Source of the DNA: Elusimicrobiota bacterium
Lineage (GTDB): Bacteria > Elusimicrobiota > Elusimicrobia > UBA1565 > UBA9628
Length of the DNA stretch: 36,085 nt
NCBI GenBank assembly: GCA_028865585.1
Contig: JAGWJU010000002.1
Coordinates: 1 to 36,085 of the forward strand
Reading direction: 5' to 3'
Part shown: piece after piece, positions 20,414-36,085 of the stretch
How the letters are laid out: each line of letters opens with the position of its first letter
How positions within the stretch are numbered: the stretch's first letter is position 1
Notes under the pieces: generated by a model
Seen by the model: only the letters and a program-made list of their open reading frames with translations
Told to the model about the DNA's origin: nothing
The model's database searches: none
Made by a program: the position numbers and the translations under genes

Positions 20414-20420
20414 CGGCGAG

Positions 20421-21793: not shown

Positions 21794-23144
21794 AAAAATG
21801 TCGGCCGCCTTTTTTGTCTGCGCCATCATCGGGTTCGTCGGCGGCGTTTTCTATCTGAGAAAAAAGTATGCGGCGGCGCCGATCATGATGATTCCGGTCA
21901 GAACCTACACCACGTTCCAGTACCCCGAGGACCCGGCCCGCCACAGTTCCCGCTTCGGCTTCTACGACGCGCGCCGCTTGAAGCTCGTCACCAAGGACGG
22001 CGTACATTTTAATTTTATTTTCAAACCGGAAAACGGCCGCACGGCGCGGGTCGTGTTCAAGAACGTGGACGTACGGCTTTTGAGCACGACTTTGCCGGCC
22101 TGGACGAAAAGCGACCCCGCCCTCCAGCGCATCGCCCTGACGGATCGGGAGTGGAACCGGCAGGAAGTGAGCTTTAATCCCCATGGAAGTCATTTTGAAA
22201 TCAGCGGAGGAGACGGATGGGAAAAGGAACACATCTACGCGGCGCACCTGGCCAGGAACTGCCTCAACGCCGGCTTATGGGAGGTTCTCTTGTTCGACAA
22301 GGAGAACGGCCGCAAAACCCTCTACTACCACGGCTGGTTCACCTTTCCGCTGGGCTGGTATCGGAAACTTTTTGAGCGCGAGACCGGATTGGCTTATTGG
22401 AGACACTGGTATTATCTGGAGCACTGGGATAATCCCGCGGGGCTCAAAATGGACCTCTCCAAGCTGCGGCGCATGCTGGCGCAATATCCGGTCGAAGCCT
22501 CGTTCAACCCGAATGAGCCCATCCTGCGAGAAGGCGAACAAATCGACAAGCGCAAGAACATCAGCGTCGAAACATTATCTGCCTGGGGAGACATTCTCCG
22601 CAAGAGTCCGTCCATTCGCTACGCCGCCTTTTTGCCGCCCGGCCGTTATTTCGTGAGCCATCCCTGGGGCAACGAGTACTGGCGGCTGGCGAAATTCGAG
22701 GGGGCCGTTTGGCGCCGGATTATTTCCCCGGCCGGGCCCAAACCTCTTGATGAACTAGAGCTTCAATTCAAAAGCACAAAAGGAGCGCTCAGCCGTTATA
22801 TCATCAGCGGCTTTTCCCTAAGCGCGCTGCCCCGGCTTAAGCTCGAGGACTATCCGAAAGGCCTTTACATGCCCATGGGCATCGGCGTGCCGCCGTTCCA
22901 CCAAAGCTACGAGGATCTGGAGAAAAATCCTCCGCAAAAGACTCCTTATTTCTGCCTGTGGCTCGATTCGCGGGGCCGCTGGATCAACCACCACGAGGGC
23001 GGCATCGACGGCCCCGTCTTATTGCGCGACAAGGACAATCCCGATCTGCTCCATGTCTTCCTTCTCTCCTACGAGAGGCACACCCTGATCGGACACTATG
23101 TGATTCACCTCGGGCATCATGCAAAATTGGGAGGCGCTCGATGA
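21786..23144 (+). CDS. Membrane-anchored protein of unknown function (Trp/Tyr-rich)
   Basis: GTG at 21786, 7 nt after GGAGGG, overlaps the upstream stop; ATG at 21798 is the alternative. One N-terminal TM 'AAFFVCAIIGFVGGVFYL'. 'GWFTFPLGWYRKLFE...YWRHWYYLEHWDNP'. I recognise no family. Confidence 0.6.
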   Translation: MLKKMSAAFFVCAIIGFVGGVFYLRKKYAAAPIMMIPVRTYTTFQYPEDPARHSSRFGFYDARRLKLVTKDGVHFNFIFKPENGRTARVVFKNVDVRLLSTTLPAWTKSDPALQRIALTDREWNRQEVSFNPHGSHFEISGGDGWEKEHIYAAHLARNCLNAGLWEVLLFDKENGRKTLYYHGWFTFPLGWYRKLFERETGLAYWRHWYYLEHWDNPAGLKMDLSKLRRMLAQYPVEASFNPNEPILREGEQIDKRKNISVETLSAWGDILRKSPSIRYAAFLPPGRYFVSHPWGNEYWRLAKFEGAVWRRIISPAGPKPLDELELQFKSTKGALSRYIISGFSLSALPRLKLEDYPKGLYMPMGIGVPPFHQSYEDLEKNPPQKTPYFCLWLDSRGRWINHHEGGIDGPVLLRDKDNPDLLHVFLLSYERHTLIGHYVIHLGHHAKLGGAR

Positions 23145-23959
23145 AATCAATTAGCATTAAAGCGCTGGCTCCGTTAACCGCATGCGCGCTGCTCTTGGCC
23201 TCAGCTCTCTCGGCCGCGGCGTCCGATCAGTCCCACGCCCTGTACGCCGAAGTGCTCAAAGCCTACGTGCATGACGGCCGGGTGGACTACGGAGCGCTTT
23301 CTCGGAAACCCGAAGACTTGGACCTCTATCTTAAAACTTTAGCCGCGGTCCCGCGGGGGGAATTCAAAAGCTGGCCGACATCGGATCAACTCGCCTTTCT
23401 CTTAAATCTCTACAACGCGGCGACTCTGCGCCTCATCGTCAGCCACTATCCTATTAAAAGCATCAAGGACATCGGGCACCTTTGGCAGAGTCCCTGGGAC
23501 TTGCCCGTGGTTCATCTCTTCGGTAAGACCATCACGCTCAACGACGTGGAGCACGGCATCATCCGCAAGGATTACGCCGAGCCGCGCGTGCACATGGCCT
23601 TGGTCTGCGCTTCCAAGGGCTGTCCGCCGCTTCGGGACGAGCCCTACGTCGGCGCGCGGCTCAACGCCCAACTCGATGACCAAGCTCGGGCGTTCCTGCG
23701 CAATCCGGACAAGTTCCGCATCGATCGCAAGGCCGGCGTCGTGTATCTTTCCTCCATCTTCAAGTGGTACGGACAAGACTTCATTCCCCGTTATCTGCCG
23801 GCTTCGGGCTTCGGCTTAGGAAGCGCCAAAGAGCGCGCCAGCCTCCATTTCATCGGCGATTATTTGAGCGCCGCGGATCGCGACTACTTAGCCAAAGGCC
23901 GCTACCGGGTTGATTATCTCGATTACGATTGGTCCTTGAACGAACGGGGCTCGCGATGA
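23141..23959 (+). CDS. DUF547 domain protein, secreted
   Basis: ATGA overlap with the previous gene. Signal peptide. 'VDYGAL...LAFLLNLYNAATL...HYPIKSIKDI...HMALVCASKGCPPLR...SSIFKWYGQDF' is the typical DUF547 pattern. Confidence 0.8.
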   Translation: MKSISIKALAPLTACALLLASALSAAASDQSHALYAEVLKAYVHDGRVDYGALSRKPEDLDLYLKTLAAVPRGEFKSWPTSDQLAFLLNLYNAATLRLIVSHYPIKSIKDIGHLWQSPWDLPVVHLFGKTITLNDVEHGIIRKDYAEPRVHMALVCASKGCPPLRDEPYVGARLNAQLDDQARAFLRNPDKFRIDRKAGVVYLSSIFKWYGQDFIPRYLPASGFGLGSAKERASLHFIGDYLSAADRDYLAKGRYRVDYLDYDWSLNERGSR

Positions 23960-24648
23960 AGCGGGTCAAATGGTTCGGAGCCGCGGTTGCCCTTCTTCTC
24001 TTAATCGTCCTGGCCGGGCATTGGAATGTCCAAGGGTTGCTGCGCCGGTCTCTGGCCGCCATCCAAAACATGGGGCCGTGGGCCCCCGGACTCTTTATCG
24101 GAGCCTACATCGCCGCCACCATCTTATTTATTCCCGGCTCACTGCTCACCTTGGGCGCGGGCGTTCTCTTCGGCGTGCTGTGGGGGACGATCTACGTTTC
24201 CATCGGCTCCGTCATGGGCGCCGCGGCGGCGTTCATTCTGGGGCGCACCCTGGCGCGCGATTGGGTCTCTCGCCGCGTCGAAGCCAACGCGAAATTCAAG
24301 GCCGTCAGCCGGGCCGTGGCCGAGGACGGCTGGAAAATCGTGGCGCTGGTGCGGCTCTCTCCTATTTTTCCTTTTAATCTCCTCAATTATGCGCTGGGGG
24401 TCACCGAAGTTTCCTTTCGAGACTACGTCCTGGCGTCGTGGATCGGCATGCTGCCCGGCACCCTGCTCTACGTCTACATCGGCTCCTTGGCCGGGAATCT
24501 GGCGCGGTTAGGATCCTCCTCGGGGCGCTCCCGCGGCCCCTGGGAATGGACTTTTTACGCCGTGGGCTTGTTGGCCACGTTGGCCGTGTCGCTTTACGTG
24601 GGCCGCATCGCGCGCCGGGCGATGCGCGAGCAGGAAACCCCGGAATAA
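23956..24648 (+). CDS. TVP38/TMEM64 (DedA-related) membrane protein
   Basis: ATGA overlap with the previous gene. 'FIPGSLLTLGAGVLFG...GAAAAFILGR...RLSPIFPFNLLNYALG'. Confidence 0.85.
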   Translation: MKRVKWFGAAVALLLLIVLAGHWNVQGLLRRSLAAIQNMGPWAPGLFIGAYIAATILFIPGSLLTLGAGVLFGVLWGTIYVSIGSVMGAAAAFILGRTLARDWVSRRVEANAKFKAVSRAVAEDGWKIVALVRLSPIFPFNLLNYALGVTEVSFRDYVLASWIGMLPGTLLYVYIGSLAGNLARLGSSSGRSRGPWEWTFYAVGLLATLAVSLYVGRIARRAMREQETPE

Positions 24649-24672
24649 TCGGCCGCGAGGCGCCCGTCCCTC

Positions 24673-24704
24673 TTGACTCTATACTCTAGTATAGGGTCTA
24701 TAAT
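24673..24704 (+). promoter_or_regulatory. MerR-type promoter/operator: TTGACT-N20-TATAAT with perfect 7-bp dyad
   Basis: TTGACT CTATACT-ct-AGTATAG ggtc TATAAT. The dyad lies at 24679-24694. GGAG SD and the merR ATG follow 19 nt after the -10. Confidence 0.7.
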
Positions 24705-24722
24705 TTAACCCAGGAGCGAAAC

Positions 24723-25139
24723 ATGGGCCAACGCTTTACCATCGGGAAAATCGCCAATCTGGCGGGGACCAGCATCCAGACCATCCGTTATTACGAGAGA
24801 TGCCGGCTCCTGCCGCCGAACGGCCGTACGGAGTCCGGCTATCGGCTCTACACGGAGGAAGCGGTCCAAAAACTGCGCTTCATCAAGAACGCTCAGAGTC
24901 TCGGTTTCTCCCTGGCTGAAATCGCGCGCCTGCTGCGACTCCGGGTCGGCTCGCCGGCGCAGTGCGGCAAGACCATGGCGCGCGTGAAGGCAAGACTTAA
25001 GGTTGTCCAGGGCAAGATTTCCGGGCTGCGGGCCATCGAAAGAACTTTGCGGCTTTTGATCCGGACCTGCGCGGCCCGGGGGACGAGCTCCTCGTGTCCG
25101 ATTTTGGAAAACTTCGAAATAAAAGACAGGAGGATATAA
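24723..25139 (+). CDS. merR: Mercury-responsive MerR regulator (all three Hg-ligand Cys present)
   Basis: HTH 'TIGKIANLAGTSIQTIRYYERCRLL'. C81 ('AQCGKT'), C116 and C125 ('RTCAARGTSSSCPILENF', C-x8-C) correspond to MerR C82/C117/C126. Confidence 0.88.
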   Translation: MGQRFTIGKIANLAGTSIQTIRYYERCRLLPPNGRTESGYRLYTEEAVQKLRFIKNAQSLGFSLAEIARLLRLRVGSPAQCGKTMARVKARLKVVQGKISGLRAIERTLRLLIRTCAARGTSSSCPILENFEIKDRRI

Positions 25140-25771
25140 TGGAAGATAAAAACAACGGACGTTTTGTCGGACTCGCCGCGCTGCTCACGGCGGGCCTGGC
25201 TTCGGTCTGCTGCATCGGCCCGCTTCTTGCCGTCGCCTTGGGCTTTGGAAGCTTGGGATTCGCCGCGGGGCTTATCCGATATCGGCCGCTGTTCCTAGCG
25301 CTGACCGCCGTGATACTGGCTTTCGGCTTTTATCAGGCTTATCGCAAACGTTCGGTTGAATGCGCGGACGGAAGCTGCGAGATGCGCTCGGGAAGCCGCG
25401 CGATGAAAACGGGCCTGTGGGTCCTAACCGCCGCCGTCCTGGCCTTGGCGACTTTTCCCAAGTGGTCGGCCTGCCTGCTGGGGCAATGCAAACCTAAAGC
25501 CGCCGCCGGGGCTGCGGCGGCTTCCGTTCCCGCCGGAGCCCAGGCCATAAACCTTGGAATTTCCGGCATGGACTGCGCCGCCTGCACGGTCGAGATTAAA
25601 AAGGACGTGGAAAAATTGCCCGGCGTCTATTCCGCGAACGTTGATTTTTACGCCGGGACGGCGCTGGTTGAAACCAACGGGAAAGTCAACCCTCAAGACG
25701 TGGTGAGGGCGGTCGCGGCCGCGGGATATCAGGCCAAAGTCATTCAGTCAAAAAATGGAGGAGCGCAATGA
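25139..25771 (+). CDS. merT: MerT-MerP fusion (mercuric ion transporter with C-terminal HMA domain)
   Basis: The ATG overlaps the merR stop (TAATG), 5 nt after AGGAGGA. 'LASVCCIGPLLAV' and 'YRPLFLALTAV...CADGSC' are MerT-like. The C-terminal complete HMA domain has 'GMDCAACT'. Confidence 0.85.
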   Translation: MEDKNNGRFVGLAALLTAGLASVCCIGPLLAVALGFGSLGFAAGLIRYRPLFLALTAVILAFGFYQAYRKRSVECADGSCEMRSGSRAMKTGLWVLTAAVLALATFPKWSACLLGQCKPKAAAGAAAASVPAGAQAINLGISGMDCAACTVEIKKDVEKLPGVYSANVDFYAGTALVETNGKVNPQDVVRAVAAAGYQAKVIQSKNGGAQ

Positions 25772-27219
25772 AGCAAAATAACGGGGTGGAAGGACGCGAG
25801 TTCTGGGACGGCGCGACGAAATTCGACTTGGCTGTGATTGGAGGCGGCTCTGGTGCTTTCGCCGCCGCCATCAAGGGCTCGGAGATGGGGGCCAAGGTCG
25901 CCATTATTGAGGAAGGCGTCATTGGGGGCACGTGCTTAAACCGCGGCTGCGTGCCCACCAAGCACCTCATTCGCGCGGCCGAGGTTTATCACTTGGCGCA
26001 GTCCAATCCTTTCGCCGGATTTTCGCTCAAGCGCTCCAAGCTGGACTTCGCCAAGCTCATCGAAAAGAAAGACGCGCTCCTCGATTGGGCCAGGAACGCC
26101 AAGTACTGGGACATCTTGAGGTATCACAAGAACATCAGCTTCATCAGCCGCAGGGCCAAACTGACCGCTCCCGGGCGCATCGACGCCGGAGGAACGGAAA
26201 TCCAGGCTCAAAAAATCATCATCGCGACCGGATCCTCGGCCTTTATCCCGCCCATCGAGGGGCTGGATAAGGTTCCCTATCTGACCAGCACGGAGGCCTT
26301 GAATCTCAAGGAGCTTCCCGGCTCCATGATGGTGCTGGGGGCCAACGCCGTGGGCCTGGAGCTGGCCCAAATGTTTTCCCGCTTCGGGGTCAAGACGGCC
26401 ATCCACGAGATCATGGGCCGCGTGGCTCCTCTGGAGGAGCCCGAGATATCGGACGCCTTGGGGAAATACATTAAGGAAGACGGCATCGAGGTCTGCACTT
26501 GCTCGAAAGTTGTCAAAGCCCGCAAGGAAGGGACGCAAATCGTCATCAGCTCCGAAATGCCCGGCGGGAAAATCAGGGAATTTATGGCCGAGGCGCTTTT
26601 GGTGGCCACGGGCAGGCGTCCCAACACGCGGAATATGGGGCTTGAAGGCCTCGGCGTGGCCATGGACGCCCGCGGCTACATCAAGACCGACGAGATGATG
26701 AAAACATCGGTTGCCGGCGTTTTCGCGGCGGGAGACTGCGTTGGGCCTTACCAGTTCGTCTATACGGCCGCTTATCAGGGAGCGGTCGCGGCCCAGAACG
26801 CCCTGGAAGACTGTTGCGAGCGTAAAATCAATTACGAACAGGTCCCCTACGCCATTTTCACCGATCCGGAAGTCGCTTCCGTGGGATTGAAGGAAGAGCA
26901 GGCCAGGAAGCGCGGCCTCGCTGTTCGGACCAGCATTCTGGATTTCCACTGGGTTCCCCGGGCCGAGGCGATGCTGAACGAGCGGGGCCTCATCAAGATC
27001 GTGGCCGAGGAAAAAAGCCTCAAGCTCCTGGGCGTGCACATCGTGGCGCCCCAGGCCGGAGAGCTTATTCACGAGGCCGCCATGGCCTTGAAATTCGGCG
27101 CGACCGCGGCGGATCTAATCGACGCGCTCCATGTCTATCCGACGCTCTCCGAGGCCTTGAAGATTTGCGCGCAGGGATTCTTCAAGGACGCGACCAAGCT
27201 CTCCTGCTGCGCGGAATAA
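25768..27219 (+). CDS. merA: Mercuric reductase, core form without N-terminal HMA (NmerA) domain
   Basis: ATGA overlap with the previous gene. 'VIGGGSGAFAAA'. Redox-active 'GGTCLNRGCVPTK'. C-terminal vicinal pair 'KLSCCAE', which is diagnostic of MerA. Confidence 0.93.
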   Translation: MKQNNGVEGREFWDGATKFDLAVIGGGSGAFAAAIKGSEMGAKVAIIEEGVIGGTCLNRGCVPTKHLIRAAEVYHLAQSNPFAGFSLKRSKLDFAKLIEKKDALLDWARNAKYWDILRYHKNISFISRRAKLTAPGRIDAGGTEIQAQKIIIATGSSAFIPPIEGLDKVPYLTSTEALNLKELPGSMMVLGANAVGLELAQMFSRFGVKTAIHEIMGRVAPLEEPEISDALGKYIKEDGIEVCTCSKVVKARKEGTQIVISSEMPGGKIREFMAEALLVATGRRPNTRNMGLEGLGVAMDARGYIKTDEMMKTSVAGVFAAGDCVGPYQFVYTAAYQGAVAAQNALEDCCERKINYEQVPYAIFTDPEVASVGLKEEQARKRGLAVRTSILDFHWVPRAEAMLNERGLIKIVAEEKSLKLLGVHIVAPQAGELIHEAAMALKFGATAADLIDALHVYPTLSEALKICAQGFFKDATKLSCCAE

Positions 27220-27243
27220 AAACGGAAAGGAGGAAAAACGAAG

Positions 27244-27432
27244 ATGAAGACAGTTCGCGTTTATGAAGGCTCGTTGTGGTGCAACGGGTGCCGCCACTGC
27301 CCGGTGGTCGACTACGCGCCTGAGGAAGGCCAAGTCGTCATCCATGATCCGGCGAAGCCCAAGAATGGCAAGATGATGATGAGCGTCGAGGAGTACAACG
27401 CCCTCATCGCGCACGCCAAGCCGATCGCATAA
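27244..27432 (+). CDS. 62-aa Cys-rich protein (CxxCxxC), unknown family
   Basis: AAGGAGG SD about 9 nt upstream. 'SLWCNGCRHCPVVDY...VVIHDPAKPKNGKMMMSVEEYNALI'. Lies 24 nt after merA. Confidence 0.6.
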   Translation: MKTVRVYEGSLWCNGCRHCPVVDYAPEEGQVVIHDPAKPKNGKMMMSVEEYNALIAHAKPIA

Positions 27433-27439
27433 TCGGACT

Positions 27440-27471
27440 GGAACGGGCCGGTCGAGAGGCCGGCCTGTTCC
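27440..27471 (+). terminator. Strong hairpin after the 62-aa gene (attenuator or terminator-like; no U-tract)
   Basis: GGAACGGGCCGG-tcgagagg-CCGGCCTGTTCC, a 12-bp stem with one G-U pair. It is followed by 'aaagctt', not a T run. Confidence 0.35.
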
Positions 27472-27508
27472 AAAGCTTAGGGCAGTCATTTGTTCCAAGG
27501 AGGTCGAC

Positions 27509-27574
27509 ATGGGATTTATGGGCTGGGCGGCGTTCCTATGCTTGGCGATGTTGTTGAGCGGCTGTTGCTGTTGA
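27509..27574 (+). CDS. Micro-ORF 1 (21 aa): MGFMGWAAFLCLAMLLSGCCC
   Basis: Below the ORF-track length cutoff. AAGGAGG (27497-27503) lies 5 nt before the ATG. Hydrophobic peptide with lipobox-like L-S-G-C, followed only by C-C and then stop. Confidence 0.35.
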   Translation: MGFMGWAAFLCLAMLLSGCCC

Positions 27575-27590
27575 AGGACAGGAGCGCAAG

Positions 27591-27677
27591 ATGAGGCAAG
27601 GGGACTTGTGGACCATCATCGCCGCCATCGCGGCCGTTTCCTTGTGCTGTCTTGGGCATCTATTCATGCGGCGTTAA
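27591..27677 (+). CDS. Micro-ORF 2 (28 aa): MRQGDLWTIIAAIAAVSLCCLGHLFMRR
   Basis: GGAG lies 6 nt before the ATG, 16 nt after the micro-ORF 1 stop. One TM helix flanked by charged ends, with an intramembrane 'CC..H'. Confidence 0.35.
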   Translation: MRQGDLWTIIAAIAAVSLCCLGHLFMRR

Positions 27678-27748
27678 GGAATGCATGACCGGCACCGCCG
27701 CGGACGCAAACCAAATAATCTTAAAAGCGCATCGGAAGATGACGCCAC

Positions 27749-27775
27749 TGTAACATTCCCGGCTTTGGCGCGACT
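27749..27775 (+). promoter_or_regulatory. ECF-type promoter motif, copy A (TGTAAC-N16-CGACT)
   Basis: TGTAACattcccggctttggcgCGACTtaataat, ending 19 nt before the ATG at 27794. Confidence 0.5.
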
Positions 27776-27793
27776 TAATAATGGAAGGATCGC

Positions 27794-28159
27794 ATGAGAA
27801 CGCTGGTAAAACCTAAAGTCCGCAGAAAGATCGCGCTTGACGGGGAGCAGGACGGGCCGGCGCAGGCGGCCACGGCCTCGGCGGCGACATTGTTGGATTA
27901 TCCCCAGGAAGGAGAAATCATCACGTCTTCCTGCTACACGTTCCGCATCGCCCCGCGCGTAGCGGCTCTAGGCGTGGATATTTCCATCGACCAGGGGCCG
28001 TGGATGCCCTGCCGGGAATCGGTCGGCTACTGGTGGTATGATTGGTCGGGCTATGCGGCGGGCCGGCACCAAGCATCGGTCAGGACGCGGACTGCGGACG
28101 GGCGGCTTGTTCCAAGCGATATCCGCCAATTTGAAACGCGCTCTGAACCCACGGCTTGA
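27794..28159 (+). CDS. Hypothetical protein, probably beta-sandwich
   Basis: GGAAGGA SD. 'YTFRIAPRVAALGVDISIDQGPWMPCRESVGYWWYDWSGYAAGRHQASVRTRTADGR' looks like an Ig/E-set-type module. No signal peptide. Confidence 0.55.
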   Translation: MRTLVKPKVRRKIALDGEQDGPAQAATASAATLLDYPQEGEIITSSCYTFRIAPRVAALGVDISIDQGPWMPCRESVGYWWYDWSGYAAGRHQASVRTRTADGRLVPSDIRQFETRSEPTA

Positions 28160-28195
28160 TTTTAGGAACGAATAAATGAAACAGGGGGCAACATC

Positions 28196-28714
28196 ATGAC
28201 TCAAGCTGCGCTGCAGGACAATCCGGAAGCCGTTCTGGACGGCATCAAAAAGAAGCTCGGCTTCGTGCCCAACATCTATAAGGAAATGATCAAGTCCCCG
28301 GCCGCGTTCGAAGTCTATGTCGGGGGAACGCAGGCCCTGGAGCGGCGAGGGATTTTGAAACCCGTTGAGCGGCAGGCCGCCATGCTGGCCGTTTCGGCCT
28401 CGAACAAGTGCGATTACTGCGCGAGCGCGCACAGCCTGCTCGCCAAGGCCTCGGGCATGGCCGAAGAAGACACCGCAGCCGTAAGATCCGGCGGCGAACC
28501 GCGCGACGCAAGGCTCGGGGCCCTGGTCCGCGCCGTCCGGCTGATTCTGGACAAGCGGGGATTCCTGGATGAGGAGAACCTGCGGCGTCTTGAAAAGGAT
28601 GGAATCGCTCGGCCGCAGCTCTACGAGCTTATCGCGATTGTCGGCCTTAAGACGATCTCCAACTACCTCAACCATATCAATCATACGGAGATCGATCCGC
28701 AGTTCAAGGGTTAG
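28196..28714 (+). CDS. Carboxymuconolactone decarboxylase / AhpD-like family protein (CxxC)
   Basis: 'AVSASNKCDYCASAHS' is the AhpD-core CxxC motif. All-helical, ~170 aa. Confidence 0.85.
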   Translation: MTQAALQDNPEAVLDGIKKKLGFVPNIYKEMIKSPAAFEVYVGGTQALERRGILKPVERQAAMLAVSASNKCDYCASAHSLLAKASGMAEEDTAAVRSGGEPRDARLGALVRAVRLILDKRGFLDEENLRRLEKDGIARPQLYELIAIVGLKTISNYLNHINHTEIDPQFKG

Positions 28715-28770
28715 GGCTCCATCGGGGGCGCGGCGGACGAAGCTCTTGGGGAATTGAACGCCCGTTGATT

Positions 28771-28797
28771 TGTAACATTTGCGGCACTAGCCGGACT
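28771..28797 (+). promoter_or_regulatory. ECF-type promoter motif, copy B (TGTAAC-N16-GGACT), upstream of the bufferin-type operon
   Basis: TGTAACatttgcggcactagccGGACTaattatt. A leader of roughly 50 nt containing a CTGGG-accgaa-CCCAG hairpin precedes the precursor ATG. Confidence 0.55.
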
Positions 28798-28854
28798 AAT
28801 TATTATCGGCTGGGACCGAACCCAGACCGAATCGGAAACAAACAGGAGAGATGA

Positions 28855-29163
28855 ATGAGCAAGACGATGAACAAAGCCCTCTTGGGGGCGGCTATGGCCG
28901 GAATCATGGGGGCGGCTATGATGGCGGCTCCCGCTTCGGCTAAACAAAGAAAAGCGGCGAAGAACGTCAAGTGCTACGGCGTGAACAAATGCGCCGGGCA
29001 CGGCAGCTGCGGCGGCAAGGGTCACCAGTGCGCGGGCAAGAATTCCTGCAAGGGCCAAGGCTGGCTCCCCATGCCCAAGAAATCCTGCGAGAACATCGAG
29101 GGCGGTTCATTGACGCCTGTCAAACCGGCGACCCAGCCGATGAACAGCAAGGGTGGCCAGTAA
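28855..29163 (+). CDS. bufA: DUF2282 / BufA-type bufferin precursor peptide with Sec signal (6 Cys, 2 His in core)
   Basis: GGAG lies 6 nt before the ATG. Signal 'ALLGAAMAGIMGAAMMAAPASA'. Core 'KCYGVNKCAGHGSCGGKGHQCAGKNSCKGQGWLPMPKKSCENIEGGSLTP' follows the 'KCYGV...C...CAG...W..P...C...GGSL' DUF2282 pattern. Confidence 0.85.
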   Translation: MSKTMNKALLGAAMAGIMGAAMMAAPASAKQRKAAKNVKCYGVNKCAGHGSCGGKGHQCAGKNSCKGQGWLPMPKKSCENIEGGSLTPVKPATQPMNSKGGQ

Positions 29164-29189
29164 GGCTTAAGCAAATAGGAACGAATCGT

Positions 29190-30083
29190 GTGGCGGCCTG
29201 GAAAACCTCCCATCATCAGCCGGACGGCTTAGTCGTCCGCGGCGTCGGCATCGGCCTACGTTCCGTCCATTACGATCACATCCTCTCCCGCCGTCCCGCG
29301 GTCCCTTGGTTCGAGGCTATTTCCGAGAACTATATGGGACTGCGGGACGGCCAAGGGGGAAGGCCCTTGGAAATTTTGCGGCTTGTCCGAGAGCGTTATC
29401 CCGTGGCCCTTCACGGAGTTTCCATGAATATCGGCTCCGCAGACCCCCTGGACCGGGATTATTTGAAAAAACTCAAGCGCCTGGCCGACCTCGTCAAACC
29501 CGCGCACATCTCGGATCATCTATGCTGGACGGGGACGCGAGGGCGCAATCTGCACGATCTCCTGCCTCTGCCTTATACGCGGGAAGCCTTGAATCTCATC
29601 GTGCCCCGGGTTCGGGAAATCCAGGAGACGCTGGGCAGGCGCTTTCTTCTGGAAAACGTTTCCAGTTACGCCGCGTACCGGCATTCCGAGATGCCGGAAT
29701 GGGAGTTCTTGGCCGAAATCGCGGAGCGCTCGGGCTGCGGCATTCTCTTGGACGTCAACAACGTCCACGTCAGCGCGACGAACCACGGATACGACCCACT
29801 CGAATACATCGATGGCGTTCCGTCCGGGCTGGTAGTGCAGATGCACCTGGCCGGCTATTCCGAGTCCGGCGCTCTCCTCATCGACACGCACGATCACCCG
29901 GTGTCCGATCCGGTCTGGGACTTGTACGCCCGAGCCCTGCGCCGTTTTGGGGACGTTCCCACGCTCATCGAATGGGACGATCGGATTCCCTCTTTTCGCG
30001 TCCTTGAGGAACAGGCCGCGCGCGCCGAAAAAATCCGCCGGGGGGTGTCGCGTGAGCGCCTTGCGCCCGCCCTGTCTTCCTGA
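29190..30083 (+). CDS. bufB: DUF692 multinuclear non-heme iron oxidase (MNIO; BufB/MbnB-like)
   Basis: GTG at 29190 is the only plausible start after the precursor stop. 'GVGIGLRSVHYDHIL...WFEAISENYM...ALHGVSMNIGS...ISDHLCW...LLENVSSY...LLDVNNVHVSA...MHLAG...LIDTHDHPV...TLIEWD'. Confidence 0.9.
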   Translation: MAAWKTSHHQPDGLVVRGVGIGLRSVHYDHILSRRPAVPWFEAISENYMGLRDGQGGRPLEILRLVRERYPVALHGVSMNIGSADPLDRDYLKKLKRLADLVKPAHISDHLCWTGTRGRNLHDLLPLPYTREALNLIVPRVREIQETLGRRFLLENVSSYAAYRHSEMPEWEFLAEIAERSGCGILLDVNNVHVSATNHGYDPLEYIDGVPSGLVVQMHLAGYSESGALLIDTHDHPVSDPVWDLYARALRRFGDVPTLIEWDDRIPSFRVLEEQAARAEKIRRGVSRERLAPALSS

Positions 30084-30888
30084 ACTGCAAAGCTGGCTCC
30101 AGGACGTCCTGAGCGATCCGGACGGGGTGGACGCGGCCGCAGCCCGCGGCGCGGCGAACGCCCAAGTCCTGTCGTGGATTCTAGACGGAGCCGGCGCGGA
30201 CGTGCGAACCCGGCTTTCGGTCTATTCCGACGCCTACTTCCTGCGCCTGCTCGATTCTCTCGGCCACGATTTTCCGGCGCTCAAACGAGCCTTGGGCGGC
30301 GACGGCTTCCGAGGCTTGATCGCGGACTATCTCAAGACAAACCCCTCCACGTTTAAGAGCGTTTCCATGGTCGGCGGGAGTCTTTTCACTTTCATTCGAT
30401 GGCATCCCTTAAGCCGAAAATTCGGGTTCCTGCCGGATTTGGCGCGTTTGGAATGGGCCGTGCTCACTTGTCTCCATCGGGATCGCCCTGAGACGGCCGA
30501 TCTTTTCCGATCCGGGGCGCTGTCGGAAGCGGATCTGCCGTCCGCCCAATTATCGCTGGGCCCGGCGGCACGGCTTTTGGAAACGGACTGGGCCGTGGAC
30601 CGGCTCTGGCGCCGCGCGGAGCTTCCCTCGGGCCGCGGCCCGAGGCGTTTGCGAAAAAAAGAGCCTCGCAAGCTGCTGATATTTCGGGATGAGTTATGGG
30701 TCCGCGTGGAATCCTTAGATCCGGCGCAATGGTCGGCTCTAAAGAAGATTGAGCGGGGGGCTGCGCTCGAATCGGTCTGCCGGCATTGGGAAAATTCCTC
30801 CGGCTTTCGGGTCGCTCCCGCGGCCGCGCGAAAATGGTTTAAGAATTGGATTCAATCCGGAATCATCGCCATCAGGAGGCCCTCATGA
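30052..30888 (+). CDS. bufC: DUF2063 protein (BufC-type MNIO partner)
   Basis: GTG at 30052, overlapping bufB by 32 nt. 'VYSDAYFLRLLDSLGHDFPALKRALGGDGFRGLIADYLKTNPS' matches the DUF2063 N-terminal domain pattern. Confidence 0.8.
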   Translation: MSALRPPCLPELQSWLQDVLSDPDGVDAAAARGAANAQVLSWILDGAGADVRTRLSVYSDAYFLRLLDSLGHDFPALKRALGGDGFRGLIADYLKTNPSTFKSVSMVGGSLFTFIRWHPLSRKFGFLPDLARLEWAVLTCLHRDRPETADLFRSGALSEADLPSAQLSLGPAARLLETDWAVDRLWRRAELPSGRGPRRLRKKEPRKLLIFRDELWVRVESLDPAQWSALKKIERGAALESVCRHWENSSGFRVAPAAARKWFKNWIQSGIIAIRRPS

Positions 30889-32402
30889 ACGAAACCATCC
30901 GTGTTTTGCCGGATGACGAGCATAACCGCGCCTTGGCGTCAAACGCTCATCCGCAGGGTTGGATCAATCCCAATCCTGCCGCGAAATACCATTTGGTCGT
31001 TGTCGGCGGAGGCACGGCCGGCCTGGTCACGGCGGCGGGCGCCGCCGGCCTGGGCGCCAAGGTCGCGTTGGTGGAGAAGCACCTCCTGGGCGGGGACTGT
31101 TTGAACGTCGGCTGCGTGCCGTCGAAGGCTCTCATCCGAGCGTCCCGGGCCGCAGCGGATGTCCGGGGCGCGGCTGAGTTTGGAATTTCGGTCCCGCTGG
31201 GCTGGACGGCGGATTTTCCCGGGATCATGGAGCGGCTGCGCCGTTTGCGCGCGCAGTTAAGTTCAAACGATTCGGCCAAGCGCTTTAAGGACTTGGGCGT
31301 GGACATTTTCCTGGGCGAAGGCCGGTTCGTGGGCCCGTCATCCCTGGAAGTCGCGGGCTCACGGCTCAATTTCTCCAAGGCCGTCATCGCCACGGGCGCG
31401 CGCGCGGCCAGGCTGCCCATCCCAGGACTATGGGAATCGGGCGCCCTGACCAACGAAACCGTCTTCTCGCTGACCGAACTGCCCAAGCGCCTCGTCGTCA
31501 TCGGCGCGGGGCCCATCGGCTGCGAACTCTCGCAGGCTTTCGCCCGCTTCGGCGCCCGCGTCTCCATTCTGGAAGTCTCGAGCCAAATTCTCGGGCGCGA
31601 GGACGAGGACGCGGCCCGCATCGTGCAAGCCGCGCTCAAGAAAGACGGGGTTGAAATCATGACGTCCTGCAAAATCTCCGGCGTGGAGGCGCGAGGCGGG
31701 GAGAAAATCGTGCGGTTAGAAAGCGAAGGTAGAAACATGGAACTGACCGCGGACGCGATTCTGGTCGGCGTGGGCCGCGCTCCCAACGTCGAAGGCCTGG
31801 AATTGGAGGCGGCGGGCGTGGAATACGACAAGCGGACGGGCGTCAAGGTGGACGACCGACTGCGCACGGCGAACTCCCGCATCTTCGCTGCGGGGGACGT
31901 TTGCTCGCCTTACAAATTCACCCATGCGGCCGACGCCATGGCGCGGGTCGCGATTCAGAACGCATTGTTCGCGGGCAGGAAAAAGGCGAGTTCGCTCGTC
32001 ATCCCCTGGTGCACCTACACAGATCCGGAAGTCGCCCACGTCGGACTTTACGAAAAGGAGGCGCACGCTCTCGGCATCAAGACGAATACCTTCATACAAG
32101 CCCTTAAGGATGTAGACCGAGCCGTTCTGGACGGGCAAGGAGAAGGCTTTGTTAAAATCCATCTTCGGACCGGCACCGATGAAATCCTTGGCGCGACCAT
32201 CGTGGCCGCCCATGCCGGCGAGATGATTGGAGAACTAGCCCTGGCCATGACCGCTAAAATCGGGCTCAAAACAATAGGGGCGACTATCCATCCATATCCC
32301 ACTCAAGCCGAGGCCGTTAAGAAAACGGCGGACGCCTACAACCGAAGCCGCTTGACGCCTGCGGCCAAGCGACTCTTGGCGTTTTGGCTGGGGCGGCCGT
32401 AG
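30885..32402 (+). CDS. Class-I pyridine-nucleotide-disulfide oxidoreductase (MerA/Lpd-like flavoprotein lacking the MerA C-terminal Cys pair)
   Basis: AGGAGG lies 5 nt before the ATG. ATGA overlap with the bufC stop. 'VVVGGGTAGL', 'GGDCLNVGCVPSK', 'HPYPTQAEA'. The C-terminus 'TPAAKRLLAFWLGRP' has no CC. Confidence 0.9.
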   Translation: MNETIRVLPDDEHNRALASNAHPQGWINPNPAAKYHLVVVGGGTAGLVTAAGAAGLGAKVALVEKHLLGGDCLNVGCVPSKALIRASRAAADVRGAAEFGISVPLGWTADFPGIMERLRRLRAQLSSNDSAKRFKDLGVDIFLGEGRFVGPSSLEVAGSRLNFSKAVIATGARAARLPIPGLWESGALTNETVFSLTELPKRLVVIGAGPIGCELSQAFARFGARVSILEVSSQILGREDEDAARIVQAALKKDGVEIMTSCKISGVEARGGEKIVRLESEGRNMELTADAILVGVGRAPNVEGLELEAAGVEYDKRTGVKVDDRLRTANSRIFAAGDVCSPYKFTHAADAMARVAIQNALFAGRKKASSLVIPWCTYTDPEVAHVGLYEKEAHALGIKTNTFIQALKDVDRAVLDGQGEGFVKIHLRTGTDEILGATIVAAHAGEMIGELALAMTAKIGLKTIGATIHPYPTQAEAVKKTADAYNRSRLTPAAKRLLAFWLGRP

Positions 32403-32411
32403 GCGCGCAAT

Positions 32412-32939
32412 ATGCCAAATCCCGTCACCCGCCTTTTCTGGAAGGCCGCCATTCGTCTGCGCTGGCTTCTGCCCTCGAAGAAAGCCTCCGGAGTCGAGAT
32501 AGGACGGCGTATTCCGGATTTTGCTTTATCCAATGCGGAAGGACGCAGCTTCAGACTCTCTTCAGTTTTCCCTGATAAGGCCGCGGTGCTGTGGCTGACC
32601 AATCTCTGCTCAAGCTGCCAGGAGCGCATTCCGCTTCTAGAGCGGGTCTATTCGGAGAAACGCAAAAACTTGGAGATATTCGCCATTTCGACGCTAGGGG
32701 ACGATCGGCGGACGCCCGAAATAATCGCAGCGGAGCATCACCCGAGCTTCCCGCTGCTTTTGGACCCCAAAGACTGGGTGAAGAATACATTGGGATTGGA
32801 GCACCCATCAGGAGCCTGCCCTATGTATAACCTCCTAATGCTGGATCGCTCCGGACGCGTTCGCTTGCGCCACCACCTTTCGGCCATCCCGGACGAGCGG
32901 TTTTTGAAAGAGTTGGATTCCCTACTGGAGGCCGCATGA
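32412..32939 (+). CDS. Thioredoxin-fold redoxin (TlpA/AhpC-TSA-like) with CSSC active site
   Basis: 'IPDFALSNAEGRSFRLSSV...AVLWLTNLCSSCQERIPLLE'. Lies 9 nt after the reductase stop. Confidence 0.75.
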   Translation: MPNPVTRLFWKAAIRLRWLLPSKKASGVEIGRRIPDFALSNAEGRSFRLSSVFPDKAAVLWLTNLCSSCQERIPLLERVYSEKRKNLEIFAISTLGDDRRTPEIIAAEHHPSFPLLLDPKDWVKNTLGLEHPSGACPMYNLLMLDRSGRVRLRHHLSAIPDERFLKELDSLLEAA

Positions 32940-33571
32940 CAGGTCCTGATTTAAGCGCCTCCATGGAGAAATACCGTAAGCACGCCCCAGGTTATGATGA
33001 TAGCGCCCGTCGAACCGAAGGCTTGCGCCGCAGGACCATCCAAGCCCTTGATCTACGTGGGGGAGAAACAGTCGTTGATGTCGGATGCGGAACGGGCCTG
33101 AGCTTCGCTGGCCTGCAGAACCGCATCGGGCCTAAAGGAACTCTCATCGGCATCGAGCCCTGCGCAGAGATGATAGCCCGGGCACGCGAACGGGTGGAGA
33201 CATACGGATGGAAGAACGTGGTTCTGCTCGAGTCTTCGGCCGAGCGGGCGGTCTGGGACGCTCCGGCTGACGCCTATCTCTTTAATTTTGCCCATGACGT
33301 CTTGCGCTCTCATATCTCGCTCAAAAATCTCTTTAAGCATGCCGTCATCGATGCCCGCGTCGTGGCTTCTGGAATGAAGCTCATGCCGTGGTACCTGGCG
33401 CCGGTAAACCCCATCGTAAGGCGCAAAGCTCGACCTTATCTGACCACGTTCGACGGTTTTTCTCGGCCCTGGACGGTTCTGGAAAACTATGCCCTAAACT
33501 TGAACGTGCGGATATACGTCTTCGGGTTGTTTTATCTGGCACATGGCACTTTGTCATTAGGAAGTGGATGA
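32936..33571 (+). CDS. Class I SAM-dependent methyltransferase
   Basis: ATGA overlap with the previous gene. Motif I 'VVDVGCGTGLS'. Paralogous along its full length to 34847-35509. Confidence 0.8.
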   Translation: MTGPDLSASMEKYRKHAPGYDDSARRTEGLRRRTIQALDLRGGETVVDVGCGTGLSFAGLQNRIGPKGTLIGIEPCAEMIARARERVETYGWKNVVLLESSAERAVWDAPADAYLFNFAHDVLRSHISLKNLFKHAVIDARVVASGMKLMPWYLAPVNPIVRRKARPYLTTFDGFSRPWTVLENYALNLNVRIYVFGLFYLAHGTLSLGSG

Positions 33572-34884
33572 TGAAAAAGCGGATTTTGCTTCTGGCCCCC
33601 AGCGCATGGGACTTGGCGGGAATCAATAAACCCGAATTCCAGGCAAAATACGAATTCATCCAAGTTCCGATGGCGTTCTATCAAACCCATCCACTTCTAA
33701 TCGGGATCCGGTTCGACATCCTGCGTTTCATCGCCAGAGCCGTACGCCTAGGCCGCAAACTGAATGTCGATGGAATAGTCGGCACGCACGATTATCCGGC
33801 ATCCTTAGCCGCAGCGGCCGTGGCCGCAGAGTTGGGGCTTCCGGGGCCAGCCGTGAACAAAGCCCTGCTTTGCCAGCACAAATATCTTTGTCGTCTCAAG
33901 CAACGAGACATAATCCCCGAAGCCACTCCTGCCTTCAGTCTGATTGATCCCTTCGACTTTACGCAGCGCCTGCCGCTCAAATTTCCTATCTTCGTCAAAC
34001 CGGTCAAAGCAACCCTGTCCATGTTCGCCGGAGAAGCCGGCAATGAACGCGAACTCGCGGACCTCCTGAAACTTTCTCAACTGGAGCGGCTCGGAGGACT
34101 TATTGCTCTTCGGCCGTTTAACCGCATGCTCACGGCTTACACTGATTTTAAAACGCACGCGAATTATTTTATCGCAGAGGAAGTCCTGCGTGGCGCCCAA
34201 GTCACCGTCGAAGGCTTCGCGTACCGCGGCCGCCCGGAAATCATGGGCATCGTCGATTCGATTATGTATCCGGGCACGCGCAGCTTTGAGCGTTTTGAAT
34301 ATCCGTCCCGCTTGCCGCCCCAGGTTCAGGAGCGTATGGGAAACTTGGCTCTTCGCTTCATATCCTCCATCGGATTCAATGACGGGTGCTTCAATGTGGA
34401 AATGATTTACGACGCCCAGGAAAACTCCATCCACATCATCGAGGTCAACCCACGGCTATGTTCGCAATTCAGCGATCTTTACGAAAAGGTCAACGGCACG
34501 AGCGGCTATGCCGTGCAGTTGGCCATTGCCGCGGGCGAACGGCCGTCGTTTTCCAGAAGGGCCGGGAAATACCGTGCGGCGGCGAGCTTCGTCTTGAGAA
34601 CATTCGAGGACAAGAAGGTCCTGCGCCTGCCGGCTCAGCCGGCAATAACCGCCATCACGGAAAGGTTCCCGGGCACGCTGGTTATGCCGCTTTGCCGCAA
34701 GAACGCGTGGCTTTCCTCAGAACCTCAGGACCGGGAAAGTTTTCGCTACGCCGCCATTAATATGGGCGCAGGCGGCTTTGACGAGCTACACGCTTCTTTC
34801 CACGCCGCGCACGCGGCCCTGCCCTTTGAATTCACCGGCAGGACCTTCAGGACGGATTACCGTTTGTCCGAGAGCCTGACGTAA
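33568..34884 (+). CDS. ATP-grasp family ligase
   Basis: ATGA overlap with the previous gene; starts 'MMKKRILLLAPS'. 'FPIFVKPVKATLSMFA', 'YFIAEEVLRGAQVTVEGF', 'CFNVEMIYD...IHIIEVNPRL'. The track ORF from 33388 is an upstream extension. Confidence 0.8.
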   Translation: MMKKRILLLAPSAWDLAGINKPEFQAKYEFIQVPMAFYQTHPLLIGIRFDILRFIARAVRLGRKLNVDGIVGTHDYPASLAAAAVAAELGLPGPAVNKALLCQHKYLCRLKQRDIIPEATPAFSLIDPFDFTQRLPLKFPIFVKPVKATLSMFAGEAGNERELADLLKLSQLERLGGLIALRPFNRMLTAYTDFKTHANYFIAEEVLRGAQVTVEGFAYRGRPEIMGIVDSIMYPGTRSFERFEYPSRLPPQVQERMGNLALRFISSIGFNDGCFNVEMIYDAQENSIHIIEVNPRLCSQFSDLYEKVNGTSGYAVQLAIAAGERPSFSRRAGKYRAAASFVLRTFEDKKVLRLPAQPAITAITERFPGTLVMPLCRKNAWLSSEPQDRESFRYAAINMGAGGFDELHASFHAAHAALPFEFTGRTFRTDYRLSESLT

Positions 34885-35509
34885 TCGAATTCCGCCGATA
34901 AACGCCTCTGGCGATATAGCTGGCGCCCAACCAAATCTGGCGCACGTTCAAGTCCGGGATATAATCGGACTGCAGGAGGCTCCAAGGGCGATTGAGGCTT
35001 TCAGTCGTCGTCATATAGTTTCTGTTGACGACGCGGACGTAAATATTAAGGGGAGAAAGCCACCAGGGGAAAAGCTTGGTTCCTGCCAAAGCGACGCGAG
35101 CAGAATTCTTGGCCGAGGCAAAAATATTGGACAACGCCTTGGGAGAGCGCAGTACGTCCTGGGTATAGTGGAACAACGCCGCGTCCCAGGAAGGGATGAC
35201 TGCGGATTCCATCGAGGATTCAATAAGGGTGACGTTTTTCCAGCCCGCGCTTTCGACACGTTTTCGGGCCAGCGACAGCATATCAGGACTCAATTCCACG
35301 CCGACAATGCTCCCCCGAGACCCAATCTTTTCTTCCAAGAGGGAAAAACACGCGCCCGTGCCGCAGGCGACATCAAGAACTGTATCGCCAGGACGCAAAT
35401 CCAGGGCAGCGACCGCCCTCTCGCGGACCGAAGCCGCACGACGAGTGGCGCGATCGTAGTTCGAAGCCAATTCGTGGTAACGAGCGACAGCAAGAGAAGG
35501 ATCAGGCAT
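34847..35509 (-). CDS. Class I SAM-dependent methyltransferase (paralogue of 32936-33571)
   Basis: Start is ATG at 35509 or 35518, overlapping the upstream gene end. 'VLDVACGTGACF'. Collinear with the paralogue ('ALDLR.G.TV.DV.CGTG', 'GWKNV.L.ESS', 'DVLRS', 'RPW..L', 'LNVR'). The 3' end overlaps the ATP-grasp 3' end by 38 nt. Confidence 0.8.
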   Translation of the reverse strand: MPDPSLAVARYHELASNYDRATRRAASVRERAVAALDLRPGDTVLDVACGTGACFSLLEEKIGSRGSIVGVELSPDMLSLARKRVESAGWKNVTLIESSMESAVIPSWDAALFHYTQDVLRSPKALSNIFASAKNSARVALAGTKLFPWWLSPLNIYVRVVNRNYMTTTESLNRPWSLLQSDYIPDLNVRQIWLGASYIARGVYRRNSITSGSRTNGNPS

Positions 35510-35822
35510 CTTCGTCATTCTTAATGATTCTACCATTCGCCCTAAGTACCGCCATAATTTGGGGGATGCTGGGTGCTCCACCAAATCTGCAGGCTGTCGC
35601 GCCACGCACAGTTGCCGCTCCCGTGTTTATTTCTCGACCGTTTATCAAAATGGTAGGAGATGGGAAGCCGCGCCACGCACGAGGAGTTTTTTTCGATTGC
35701 ACATCGATTTCCTTCCAGATTGGCGCGAGGCCCGCATGCGATAAGGCCATTCTCAGATTTTTGCGAGCCTGCTCCACGTTTGGGCAGCCTTCAAAATAAA
35801 GAAGATAAATCTTCATCTTCAT
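35502..35822 (-). CDS. Small thioredoxin/glutaredoxin-fold protein (single N-terminal 'GCP' Cys plus a distal Cys)
   Basis: 'KIYLLYFEGCPNVEQARKNL...FPSPTILINGREI...ACRF'. GAAGG SD. The exact family was not recognised. Confidence 0.5.
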   Translation of the reverse strand: MKMKIYLLYFEGCPNVEQARKNLRMALSHAGLAPIWKEIDVQSKKTPRAWRGFPSPTILINGREINTGAATVRGATACRFGGAPSIPQIMAVLRANGRIIKNDEDA

Positions 35823-35868: not shown

Positions 35869-35949
35869 AGCCATCTCCAATTGTCTTCTAATTTAATCAA
35901 TTTACATCTAGCCAAGTTACATTCGCTCTGAAGATCCAAAAAATTGTAT

Positions 35950-36085
35950 TTTATGCTTAAGTTATAATTACTTTTCGCCTCCGTAGCTCAACGGGAAAGA
36001 ACGCCTGTAACTGCTACGCGGTCGAGGAAAAAGAAGAGAAAATAGTCGTTTTTCTGCCGTTGCCGCTGTAATCCCGCCCCAGAGT
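35950..36085. repeat. Copy 2 of the diverged ~130-bp direct repeat (runs to the window edge)
   Basis: Aligns to 15204-15335. Hairpins AAGTTA-taa-TTACTT and CGTAGC...GCTACG carry compensatory changes relative to copy 1. Confidence 0.6.

Follow-up and report, generated by a model that had tools for sequence, protein, structure and literature searches.

Bufferin operon and downstream genes

The window analyzed here, a stretch of 36,085 nucleotides (nt) from an Elusimicrobiota bacterium (contig JAGWJU010000002.1, assembly GCA_028865585.1), carries a bufferin operon, bufABC, followed in the same direction by genes for a flavoprotein disulfide reductase, a redoxin, a methyltransferase (MT1) and an ATP-grasp protein. 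A previous, sequence-only reading had taken these four downstream genes for a redox and tailoring tail defining a new bufferin subclass. The comparison with related loci points instead to three independently inherited units that were packed by chance into one co-directional gene string, a reading to which we assign a probability of roughly 0.8. The seven genes are the following:

28855-29163, plus strand: bufA, Sec-exported Buf2-type precursor (NCBIfam BufA2 and Pfam PF10048)
29190-30083, plus strand: bufB, MNIO maturase (NCBIfam MNIO_BufB and Pfam MbnB_TglH_ChrH)
30052-30888, plus strand: bufC, DUF2063/HvfC-like partner (Pfam DUF2063)
30885-32402, plus strand: class-I flavoprotein disulfide reductase, DedA-associated subfamily (NF004991; Pyr_redox_2, Pyr_redox and Pyr_redox_dim)
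32412-32939, plus strand: redoxin with a thioredoxin fold and a CSSC motif, lineage-specific partner of the reductase (Pfam AhpC-TSA/Redoxin)
32936-33571, plus strand: MT1, methyltransferase (Pfam PCMT)
33568-34884, plus strand: ATP-grasp protein (ATP-grasp_4)

Gene calls and direct reading of the junctions agree with the number, order and overlaps of these genes in the sequence-only reading, and the domains it named are recovered in Pfam and NCBIfam profile searches. The genes bufB and bufC overlap by 32 nt, as they also do in an independent gene call in the closest relative that carries the operon (L111), and the tight packing of the rest is borne out by an ATGA overlap between bufC and the reductase gene (30885-30888), a 9-nt gap ahead of the redoxin gene (32403-32411) and ATGA overlaps at both ends of the MT1 gene (32936-32939 and 33568-33571). 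The translated bufA product has a Sec-type signal (MSKTMNKALLGAAMAGIMGAAMMAAPASA, followed by KQ) and a core with six cysteines. Its sole NCBIfam match is BufA2 (NF050166; 67.1 bits, cut-off 60), which fits better than the DUF2282/BufA1 family of Pfam, passed only narrowly (PF10048; 26 bits, cut-off 22.4). BufB is recognized by both MNIO_BufB (NF050167; 368 against a cut-off of 310) and MbnB_TglH_ChrH (PF05114; 352 bits), and BufC passes DUF2063 (PF09836; 50.8 against 27.2) and stays below the NCBIfam cut-off for HvfC (40 against 142). Judging from these matches, bufABC is a genuine and ordinary Buf2-type bufferin operon. The bufferin core had thus been identified correctly, the six cysteines and the BufA2 match assigning it more precisely to the Buf2 type; for the Buf1/gig type the precursor would need four cysteines instead of six, and the window holds no DoxX gene. 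A plasmid search with BufB returned 509 records, mainly from Proteobacteria and all below 60% identity.

The closest described counterpart is the buf2ABC operon of Caulobacter vibrioides (CCNA_02999-03001; BUF_6/12Cys; PMC11626156, PMC12452194), which has the same Sec-signal six-cysteine precursor, BufB-type MNIO and DUF2063 partner in the same three-gene layout, also without DoxX. The sequences are not close, however, the nearest relatives of the window operon being found in Elusimicrobiota and other uncultured phyla, and the operon described here lies downstream of merR-merTP-merA and an AhpD/CMD gene. The buf1ABCD/gig systems of Caulobacter and Cupriavidus metallidurans follow the same MNIO-plus-DUF2063 maturation logic for a periplasmic metallophore, but they have a four-cysteine DUF2282 precursor, DoxX and often an extracytoplasmic function (ECF) sigma factor with NrsF, none of which is present beside this operon.

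Distribution of the mer-buf block and the methyltransferase/ATP-grasp cassette

Alignment with close relatives sets apart an island that contains bufABC, the genes that flank it and a variable cassette at the end of the string:

23141-23959, plus strand: DUF547 gene (Pfam DUF547, 86 bits; start taken from the L111 gene call)
23956-24648, plus strand: DedA/VTT-domain membrane protein (Pfam VTT_dom, 114 bits)
24649-30884, plus strand: island, an indel block from the merR promoter through bufC, delimited by blastn and tblastx synteny breaks
32936-35822, mixed strands: variable cassette, from MT1 to a DF-family protein (Pfam and NCBIfam matches)
34847-35605, minus strand: MT2, convergent methyltransferase paralogue (Pfam PCMT)
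35502-35822, minus strand: DF-family/DUF2703 protein (Pfam/NCBIfam)

The relatives compared, with the identity of their reductase to that of the window and their gene order, are:

L111: reductase 91%; island present, cassette absent; DUF547-DedA-merR-merTP-merA-CMD-HEAT-bufABC-reductase-redoxin
L085 (metagenome): reductase 78%; island absent, cassette present; DUF547-DedA-reductase-redoxin-MT1-ATP-grasp, with convergent MT2 and DF protein
L114: reductase 92%; island absent, cassette absent; DUF547-DedA-reductase-redoxin
L112/L113: reductase 80%; only the 3' end of bufC, at the contig edge, and only a truncated methyltransferase; bufC end, orphan gene of 449 amino acids (aa), reductase-redoxin
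L118 and L119 (outgroups): reductase 69-70%; island absent, cassette absent; DUF547-DedA-reductase contiguous, no redoxin

Since the window has both elements, L111 only the island, L085 only the cassette and L114 neither, island and cassette occur in all four combinations. The island (24649-30884) is absent from L085, L114, L118 and L119, all of which have a DUF547-DedA-reductase block without buf genes, extended by the redoxin in the first two. Conversely, the methyltransferase and ATP-grasp genes are missing from L111, the closest island-bearing relative, and from L114, are reduced to the truncated methyltransferase in L112/L113, and are present together with the whole cassette, and without buf, in L085. 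This distribution argues against the four genes forming a redox and tailoring subclass of bufferin operons. L085 aligns with the window at 74-82% nucleotide identity over 17475-24639 and 30870-35815 and lacks 24649-30884, in place of which an 18-nt spacer leads from the DedA stop codon to the reductase ATG; in L118 the DedA and reductase genes overlap by 4 nt. We infer that this contiguous DedA-reductase state is the ancestral one. In the window the DedA gene is distant from the reductase gene because the island, about 6.2-7 kb of merR-merTP-merA-AhpD-bufABC, lies between them.

The borders of the exchanged segment appear to extend beyond the island itself. Nucleotide identity between the window and L114 reaches 90% over DUF547 and 93% over reductase-redoxin, and nothing aligns in 23943-30938. 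Protein identity of DedA is 92% between the window and L111 and 91% between L114 and L085. Across these two pairs it drops to only 57-60%, although the DUF547 and reductase genes flanking the window allele reach 87-92%. The divergent allele suggests that DedA was exchanged by recombination along with the mer-buf block, and, given this divergence and the break in the alignment, the exchanged block would include the DedA gene and the first reductase codons. On this basis a site-specific insertion seems less likely than homologous recombination, in which the donor would already have carried DedA-mer-buf-reductase. Scans of the region for tRNA and Rfam families were empty and no tRNA gene was found at the island borders; integrases and flanking repeats were not searched for. 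The island is itself a mosaic: L111 lacks 27235-28095, and a deletion in the window has spared just the last ~45 nt of a HEAT-repeat gene (intact in L111, 187 aa), as a 3' remnant at 28722-28768.

Mercury resistance genes and the proposed bufA promoter

Upstream of bufABC, the island contains:

24673-24704, plus strand: putative MerR-type promoter/operator, read from the sequence
24723-25139, plus strand: merR (Pfam MerR)
About 25142-25771, plus strand: merT-HMA fusion (Pfam MerT and HMA)
25768-27219, plus strand: merA (TIGR02053)
27244-27432: 62-aa CxxC...C protein, absent from L111
27794-28159: 121-aa protein, absent from L111
28196-28714, plus strand: AhpD/CMD-family protein that travels with bufABC (Pfam CMD, 39 bits)

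The predicted MerR-type promoter begins 25 nt past the DedA stop codon and has TTGACT and TATAAT separated by a 20-nt spacer that includes the palindrome CTATACTCTAGTATAG; the first gene of the operon is merR. The merA gene, already named as such in the sequence-only reading, encodes a true MerA, with a TIGR02053 score of 524 (cut-off 454) and a C-terminal cysteine pair (...SCCAE). The AhpD/CMD homologue adjoins bufABC in L111, in L034 and in the closest buf relative, L005, and mer genes accompany the AhpD/CMD-bufABC combination in the window, in L111 and L005 and in the unrelated L034 (Bdellovibrionales), in which CMD-bufABC-DoxX is followed by merC-like, merR, merT and merP genes. MerC-bufferin fusions reported from mercury clusters (PMC12452194) already tie bufferins to mer genes and imply that their role is not limited to copper; here, on the other hand, BufA is predicted to be secreted as a peptide of its own, and a MerT-HMA fusion, not MerC, is the transporter. 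A soft-metal role of the window operon is therefore plausible from its recurring linkage to AhpD and mer genes, and since bufABC travels with AhpD/CMD and merR-merTP-merA, Hg(II) would be as plausible a target as copper.

The second argument given for such a role, that the operon shares an ECF-type promoter at 28771 with other thiol-active genes, did not fare as well. A sigma-70 scan finds no promoter at 28771, immediately past the HEAT-repeat remnant, and the 30-mer at this position has no second copy in the window when as many as 3 mismatches are allowed, which leaves no sign of a promoter type shared with other genes. Aligned with L111 and L005, the site is conserved merely to the degree predicted by overall identity. 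The ECF-type promoter itself is neither confirmed nor refuted by these results.

Neighborhoods of BufB relatives and absence of DoxX

To place the operon in a wider context, the 80 best BufB relatives in species-representative genomes (L005-L084; 52-71% identity, many phyla) were selected by similarity to the window BufB, and their 10-kb neighborhoods were searched by tblastn with the window proteins. Neither a redoxin nor an ATP-grasp homologue was found in any of the 80 loci, and the methyltransferase gave only two weak matches (26-27% identity), both on the opposite strand. Four loci (L016, L033, L045 and L060), from four phyla and each arranged differently, have a reductase orthologue of 45% identity or more within 10 kb, and in none of the 80 does it directly follow bufC. 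Hence, three of the four downstream genes are not syntenic with bufABC in these relatives, and the reductase escapes this verdict only weakly. Wherever upstream sequence exists, the reductases near buf genes are immediately preceded by a DedA/VTT gene. In L005, also from the Elusimicrobiota (BufA 74% and BufB 71% identical), bufC is followed by the CMD/AhpD gene at the end, and merR and merTP lie ~7 kb upstream.

When neighboring open reading frames (ORFs) are clustered, the most frequent are YceI (23 loci), DoxX (12), S9 prolyl oligopeptidase (10), a cytochrome-oxidase-subunit-III-like protein (7) and an ECF sigma factor (6). YceI, the commonest neighbor of this BufB clade, is usually encoded ~1 kb upstream of bufB, and the S9 prolyl oligopeptidase gene directly follows bufC in its 10 loci, mostly of Acidobacteriota. 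In L033, genes for Cu/Zn superoxide dismutase and YceI are situated between the DedA-reductase-DUF547 genes and bufABC.

The same loci bear on DoxX, the supposed replacement of which had been central to the sequence-only reading. It had correctly stated that no DoxX-like ORF is present here: tblastn of the window with a Pfam-verified DoxX query from L016 gives a best E-value of 0.97. Its view of DoxX as the normal completion of the module, on the other hand, is not sustained. The founding buf2ABC operon has no DoxX gene and Buf1 maturation and function do not need DoxX (PMC11626156), and DoxX accompanies 40% of ~14,000 MNIO loci (PMC12452194 Table S1). With the Pfam-verified query, 13 of the 80 BufB relatives show a DoxX homologue within 10 kb, and only six of those loci have one directly after bufC. 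Because DoxX is found in only a minority of these loci, bufABC without DoxX is the ordinary form in this BufB clade. A DoxX gene just outside the window is also unlikely, given that the operon closes in convergent genes and that none is present in the extension of an identical contig (L001) that is 0.4 kb longer; likewise, none occurs downstream of the corresponding genes in L111, L085 and L114.

The reductase and its resident locus

The reductase scores 810 against NCBIfam NF004991 (cut-off 620), and its translation contains CLNVGC, the CxxxxC redox centre, and a C-terminal HPYPTQAE with the His-Glu dyad. Its assignment as a second MerA was considered and rejected, since it falls below the TIGR02053 cut-off (398 against 454) and ends in ...AFWLGRP, without the cysteine pair; in a PDB sequence search it is equidistant from MerA and LpdA. 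Family members from different phyla are 65-70% identical, and some are fused to DedA (P0139 and P0209); among COG0398 DedA proteins no other fusion is as common as that with a disulfide oxidoreductase (PMC10127716). A DedA/VTT gene lies directly upstream of the reductase gene in eight loci (L085, L114, L118, L119, L116, L016, L033 and L060), and L115 and L117 have a reductase without adjacent DedA. The window pair resembles the COG0398 DedA/TVP38-oxidoreductase pairs (PMC10127716; NF004991), but is split by the 6.2-kb mer-buf block. The redoxin follows the reductase in L085, L111, L112/L113 and L114, and does not do so in L118, L119 or other phyla.

Conservation continues upstream of the island. 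The DUF547 gene is 82-90% identical in L085, L114 and L111, and two further genes are retained ahead of it:

20421-21104, plus strand: GT2 glycosyltransferase-like gene (NCBIfam TIGR04283, 235 against a cut-off of 182)
About 21101-21793, plus strand: DUF2064 glycosyltransferase-like gene (NCBIfam TIGR04282, 203 against a cut-off of 134)

This pair is syntenic in L085, L111, L118 and L005. In L118 it is also syntenic with DUF547-DedA-reductase, and in L005 bufABC directly follows it.

The methyltransferase/ATP-grasp cassette

The two methyltransferases, which are paralogues with 46-47% identity, score 39 and 36 bits against Pfam PCMT (cut-off 20.3). The ATP-grasp family is widespread in unrelated contexts, and synteny centred on it, covering three annotated contexts and 26 metagenome loci, revealed no buf genes and only the convergent methyltransferase as a conserved partner. 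The predicted structure of the ATP-grasp protein (predicted local distance difference test score 90.6) finds its best Foldseek matches among the L-amino-acid ligases BL00235, BacD/YwfE and RizA (TM-scores 0.66-0.77) and biotin carboxylases, although at only 14-17% sequence identity; macrocyclases of ribosomally synthesized peptides with post-translational modifications (RiPPs) do not appear among the top 50 structural matches. PDB sequence searches found no close characterized relative of the ATP-grasp protein or the methyltransferase. Both fall far below the cut-offs of RiPP-specific families, the graspetide type included (TIGR04188, 30 against 380), and no graspetide maturase family matches at E ≤ 1e-3. 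With a fold that matches small-molecule ligases and RiPP families so far below cut-off, synthesis or modification of a small molecule would be a more likely role of the cassette than tailoring of BufA. In the literature, we found nothing relevant on MNIO enzymes or bufferins combined with ATP-grasp proteins or methyltransferases.

The ATP-grasp and MT2 genes overlap tail to tail by ~38 nt (34847-34884 in the window, 9745-9785 in L085), an overlap that is kept in L085, L086, L087, L096 and the P0005 contig. The DF-family/DUF2703 protein (35502-35822, minus strand) has a cysteine (GCPNV) at the position of the redox motif of its family, and the region also matches other NCBIfam families with selenoprotein members (DF family, AhpD-related proteins and methyltransferases).

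Origin of the gene string

Taken as three units of separate descent, the string can be described as follows. The first unit would be the Buf2-type operon bufA2-bufB-bufC, accompanied by the AhpD/CMD gene and merR-merTP-merA. By analogy with Caulobacter Buf1 and Buf2, BufB and BufC would turn precursor cysteines into 5-thiooxazoles in the cytoplasm, and the mature peptide would then be exported by Sec and sequester soft metal ions in the periplasm. The second unit would be the resident reductase-redoxin pair, the real partners of the reductase being the upstream DUF547 and DedA/VTT genes and, beyond them, the TIGR04283/TIGR04282 genes; the mer-AhpD-buf block between DedA and the reductase would most likely have come by recombination, swapping the DedA allele as well. 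The third would be the variable methyltransferase/ATP-grasp/methyltransferase/DF-protein cassette, with an ATP-grasp fold closest to small-molecule L-amino-acid ligases. The ATGA overlap of bufC and the reductase gene would then repeat the tight DedA-reductase coupling of island-free relatives, and its likely effect would be an altered expression of the reductase, not a shared biochemical pathway. On the synteny described above, the four downstream genes belong to separate, older gene blocks and are not a bufferin extension; therefore, a new bufferin subclass with methylation and ligation tailoring is not supported and does not seem worth pursuing on this evidence. Tight ATGA coupling would be misleading in this case because a gene block appears to have dropped into an existing operon.

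Several observations weigh against so complete a separation, all of them concerning the reductase. Its ATGA overlap with bufC is conserved in the window and L111, so that the two genes are probably co-expressed in this lineage, and in L112/L113 the 3' end of bufC again lies upstream of the reductase, with one orphan gene between them. L016, L033, L045 and L060 have a DedA-reductase module no more than 10 kb from their buf operons, Tautonia sociabilis (L116) has a DedA-reductase pair divergent from an MNIO-DUF2063 operon, and Pyr_redox_dim domains have been recorded near 7% of MNIO genes (PMC12452194 Table S1). The reductase, as opposed to the rest of the tail, may hence have a functional or regulatory tie to bufferins.

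The alternative that best withstands the data builds on this tie and takes the DUF547-DedA-reductase module, here with the redoxin, as a facultative accessory or regulon member of bufferin operons; it could, for instance, supply membrane-associated reducing power against the same metal or thiol stress, with selection keeping both nearby. The four orthologues in 80 BufB loci, each in a different arrangement, compare with a rough expectation, not corrected for phylogeny, of fewer than 0.4 loci for a single-copy gene in ~1.3 Mb of flanking sequence, and they are joined by one (L116) of three arbitrarily chosen distant reductase orthologues. Moreover, bufC is found upstream of the reductase in three Elusimicrobiota lineages, and buf genes come right after the TIGR04283/TIGR04282 pair in L005. 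The module is, however, absent from 76 of the 80 buf loci, in which YceI, DoxX and S9 peptidase are all commoner neighbors, the reductase belongs to a very large family that is strongly conserved across phyla, and the reductase loci L085, L114, L115, L117, L118 and L119 have no buf genes; the sample is also small and was selected for similarity to the window BufB. We thus regard this alternative as unlikely, and the presence of DedA-reductase genes near buf operons in several phyla, above chance as it is, as a weak lead, testable but with a rather low probability of reflecting a real functional tie. The broadest form of the idea goes further and holds that in five or more phyla (Elusimicrobiota, Planctomycetota, Myxococcota, Bdellovibrionota and Omnitrophota) bufferin operons are non-randomly co-located with DUF547-DedA(COG0398)-reductase genes, the module being an unrecognized facultative redox accessory of bufferin-based metal defence that here forms one translationally coupled string under mer/metal control. 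In this form it is doubtful at best.

It is far less probable that the methyltransferase/ATP-grasp/methyltransferase cassette constitutes a separate graspetide-type RiPP system, one that has a PIMT-like methyltransferase and an unannotated precursor. The PCMT scores of both methyltransferases and the maintenance of the ATP-grasp and convergent methyltransferase pair in at least five contexts would suit such a system, but the lack of a graspetide maturase match, the L-amino-acid ligases and carboxylases at the top of the Foldseek matches and the absence of a conserved small ORF beside the pair in the annotated contexts speak against it. Weakest of all, and already largely refuted by synteny, is the proposal of the sequence-only reading that the tail is a dedicated extension replacing DoxX and providing an NAD(P)H-to-thiol branch, peptide methylation and ligation, which has in its favour the compact gene run with ATGA overlaps that leads from bufC to the ATP-grasp gene, and the bufC-reductase-redoxin order kept in L111, but which hardly survives the four combinations of island and cassette, the lack of redoxin and ATP-grasp homologues in all 80 BufB loci, the rule that Buf2 operons lack DoxX, RiPP-family scores as low as 30 against 380 and an ATP-grasp fold that matches small-molecule ligases.

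With the string read as three units of separate descent, the mer-AhpD-BufA2BC unit provides a clean natural example arguing that some Buf2 bufferins may serve mercury, rather than copper, defence, and the presence/absence polymorphism of the island among close Elusimicrobiota relatives can be used to study island movement.

Other features of the locus

The segment 18414-21793 comprises a radical S-adenosylmethionine gene (not ArsS: 61 bits, cut-off 300), a metallophosphoesterase gene and the TIGR04283/TIGR04282 genes, whose family label is 'arsenosugar biosynthesis glycosyltransferase'. It is followed at 21680-23138 by an orphan gene (ORF 21786-23144, 452 aa) with no Pfam or NCBIfam match. This orphan is absent at the same position from L111, L114 and L085, and a 69%-identical copy is the gene that lies between bufC and the reductase in L112/L113; since the copy sits elsewhere there, the orphan gene appears to change position within the locus.

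A repeated unit, composed of a promoter-like TTGTATTTTAYGCTTAAGTTAYAAT and a hairpin resembling the 5' half of a tRNA (GCCYCCGYAGCTCAATGG...GCTRCGGGG), is present at 15204-15290 and 35939-36030 of the window and in L085 (14480-14600, 17060-17180 and 18345-18480), L114 (3945-4075) and L112 (4140-4270). The hairpin shows one compensatory change (GTAGC/GCTAC vs. GCAGC/GCTGC). The copies in the window have no ARAGORN or Rfam match, and in L112 the same promoter precedes an apparently complete tRNA-Arg(TCT)-like gene. The copy at 35939-36030 marks where, in comparison with L114 and L112, the methyltransferase/ATP-grasp cassette has its right border.

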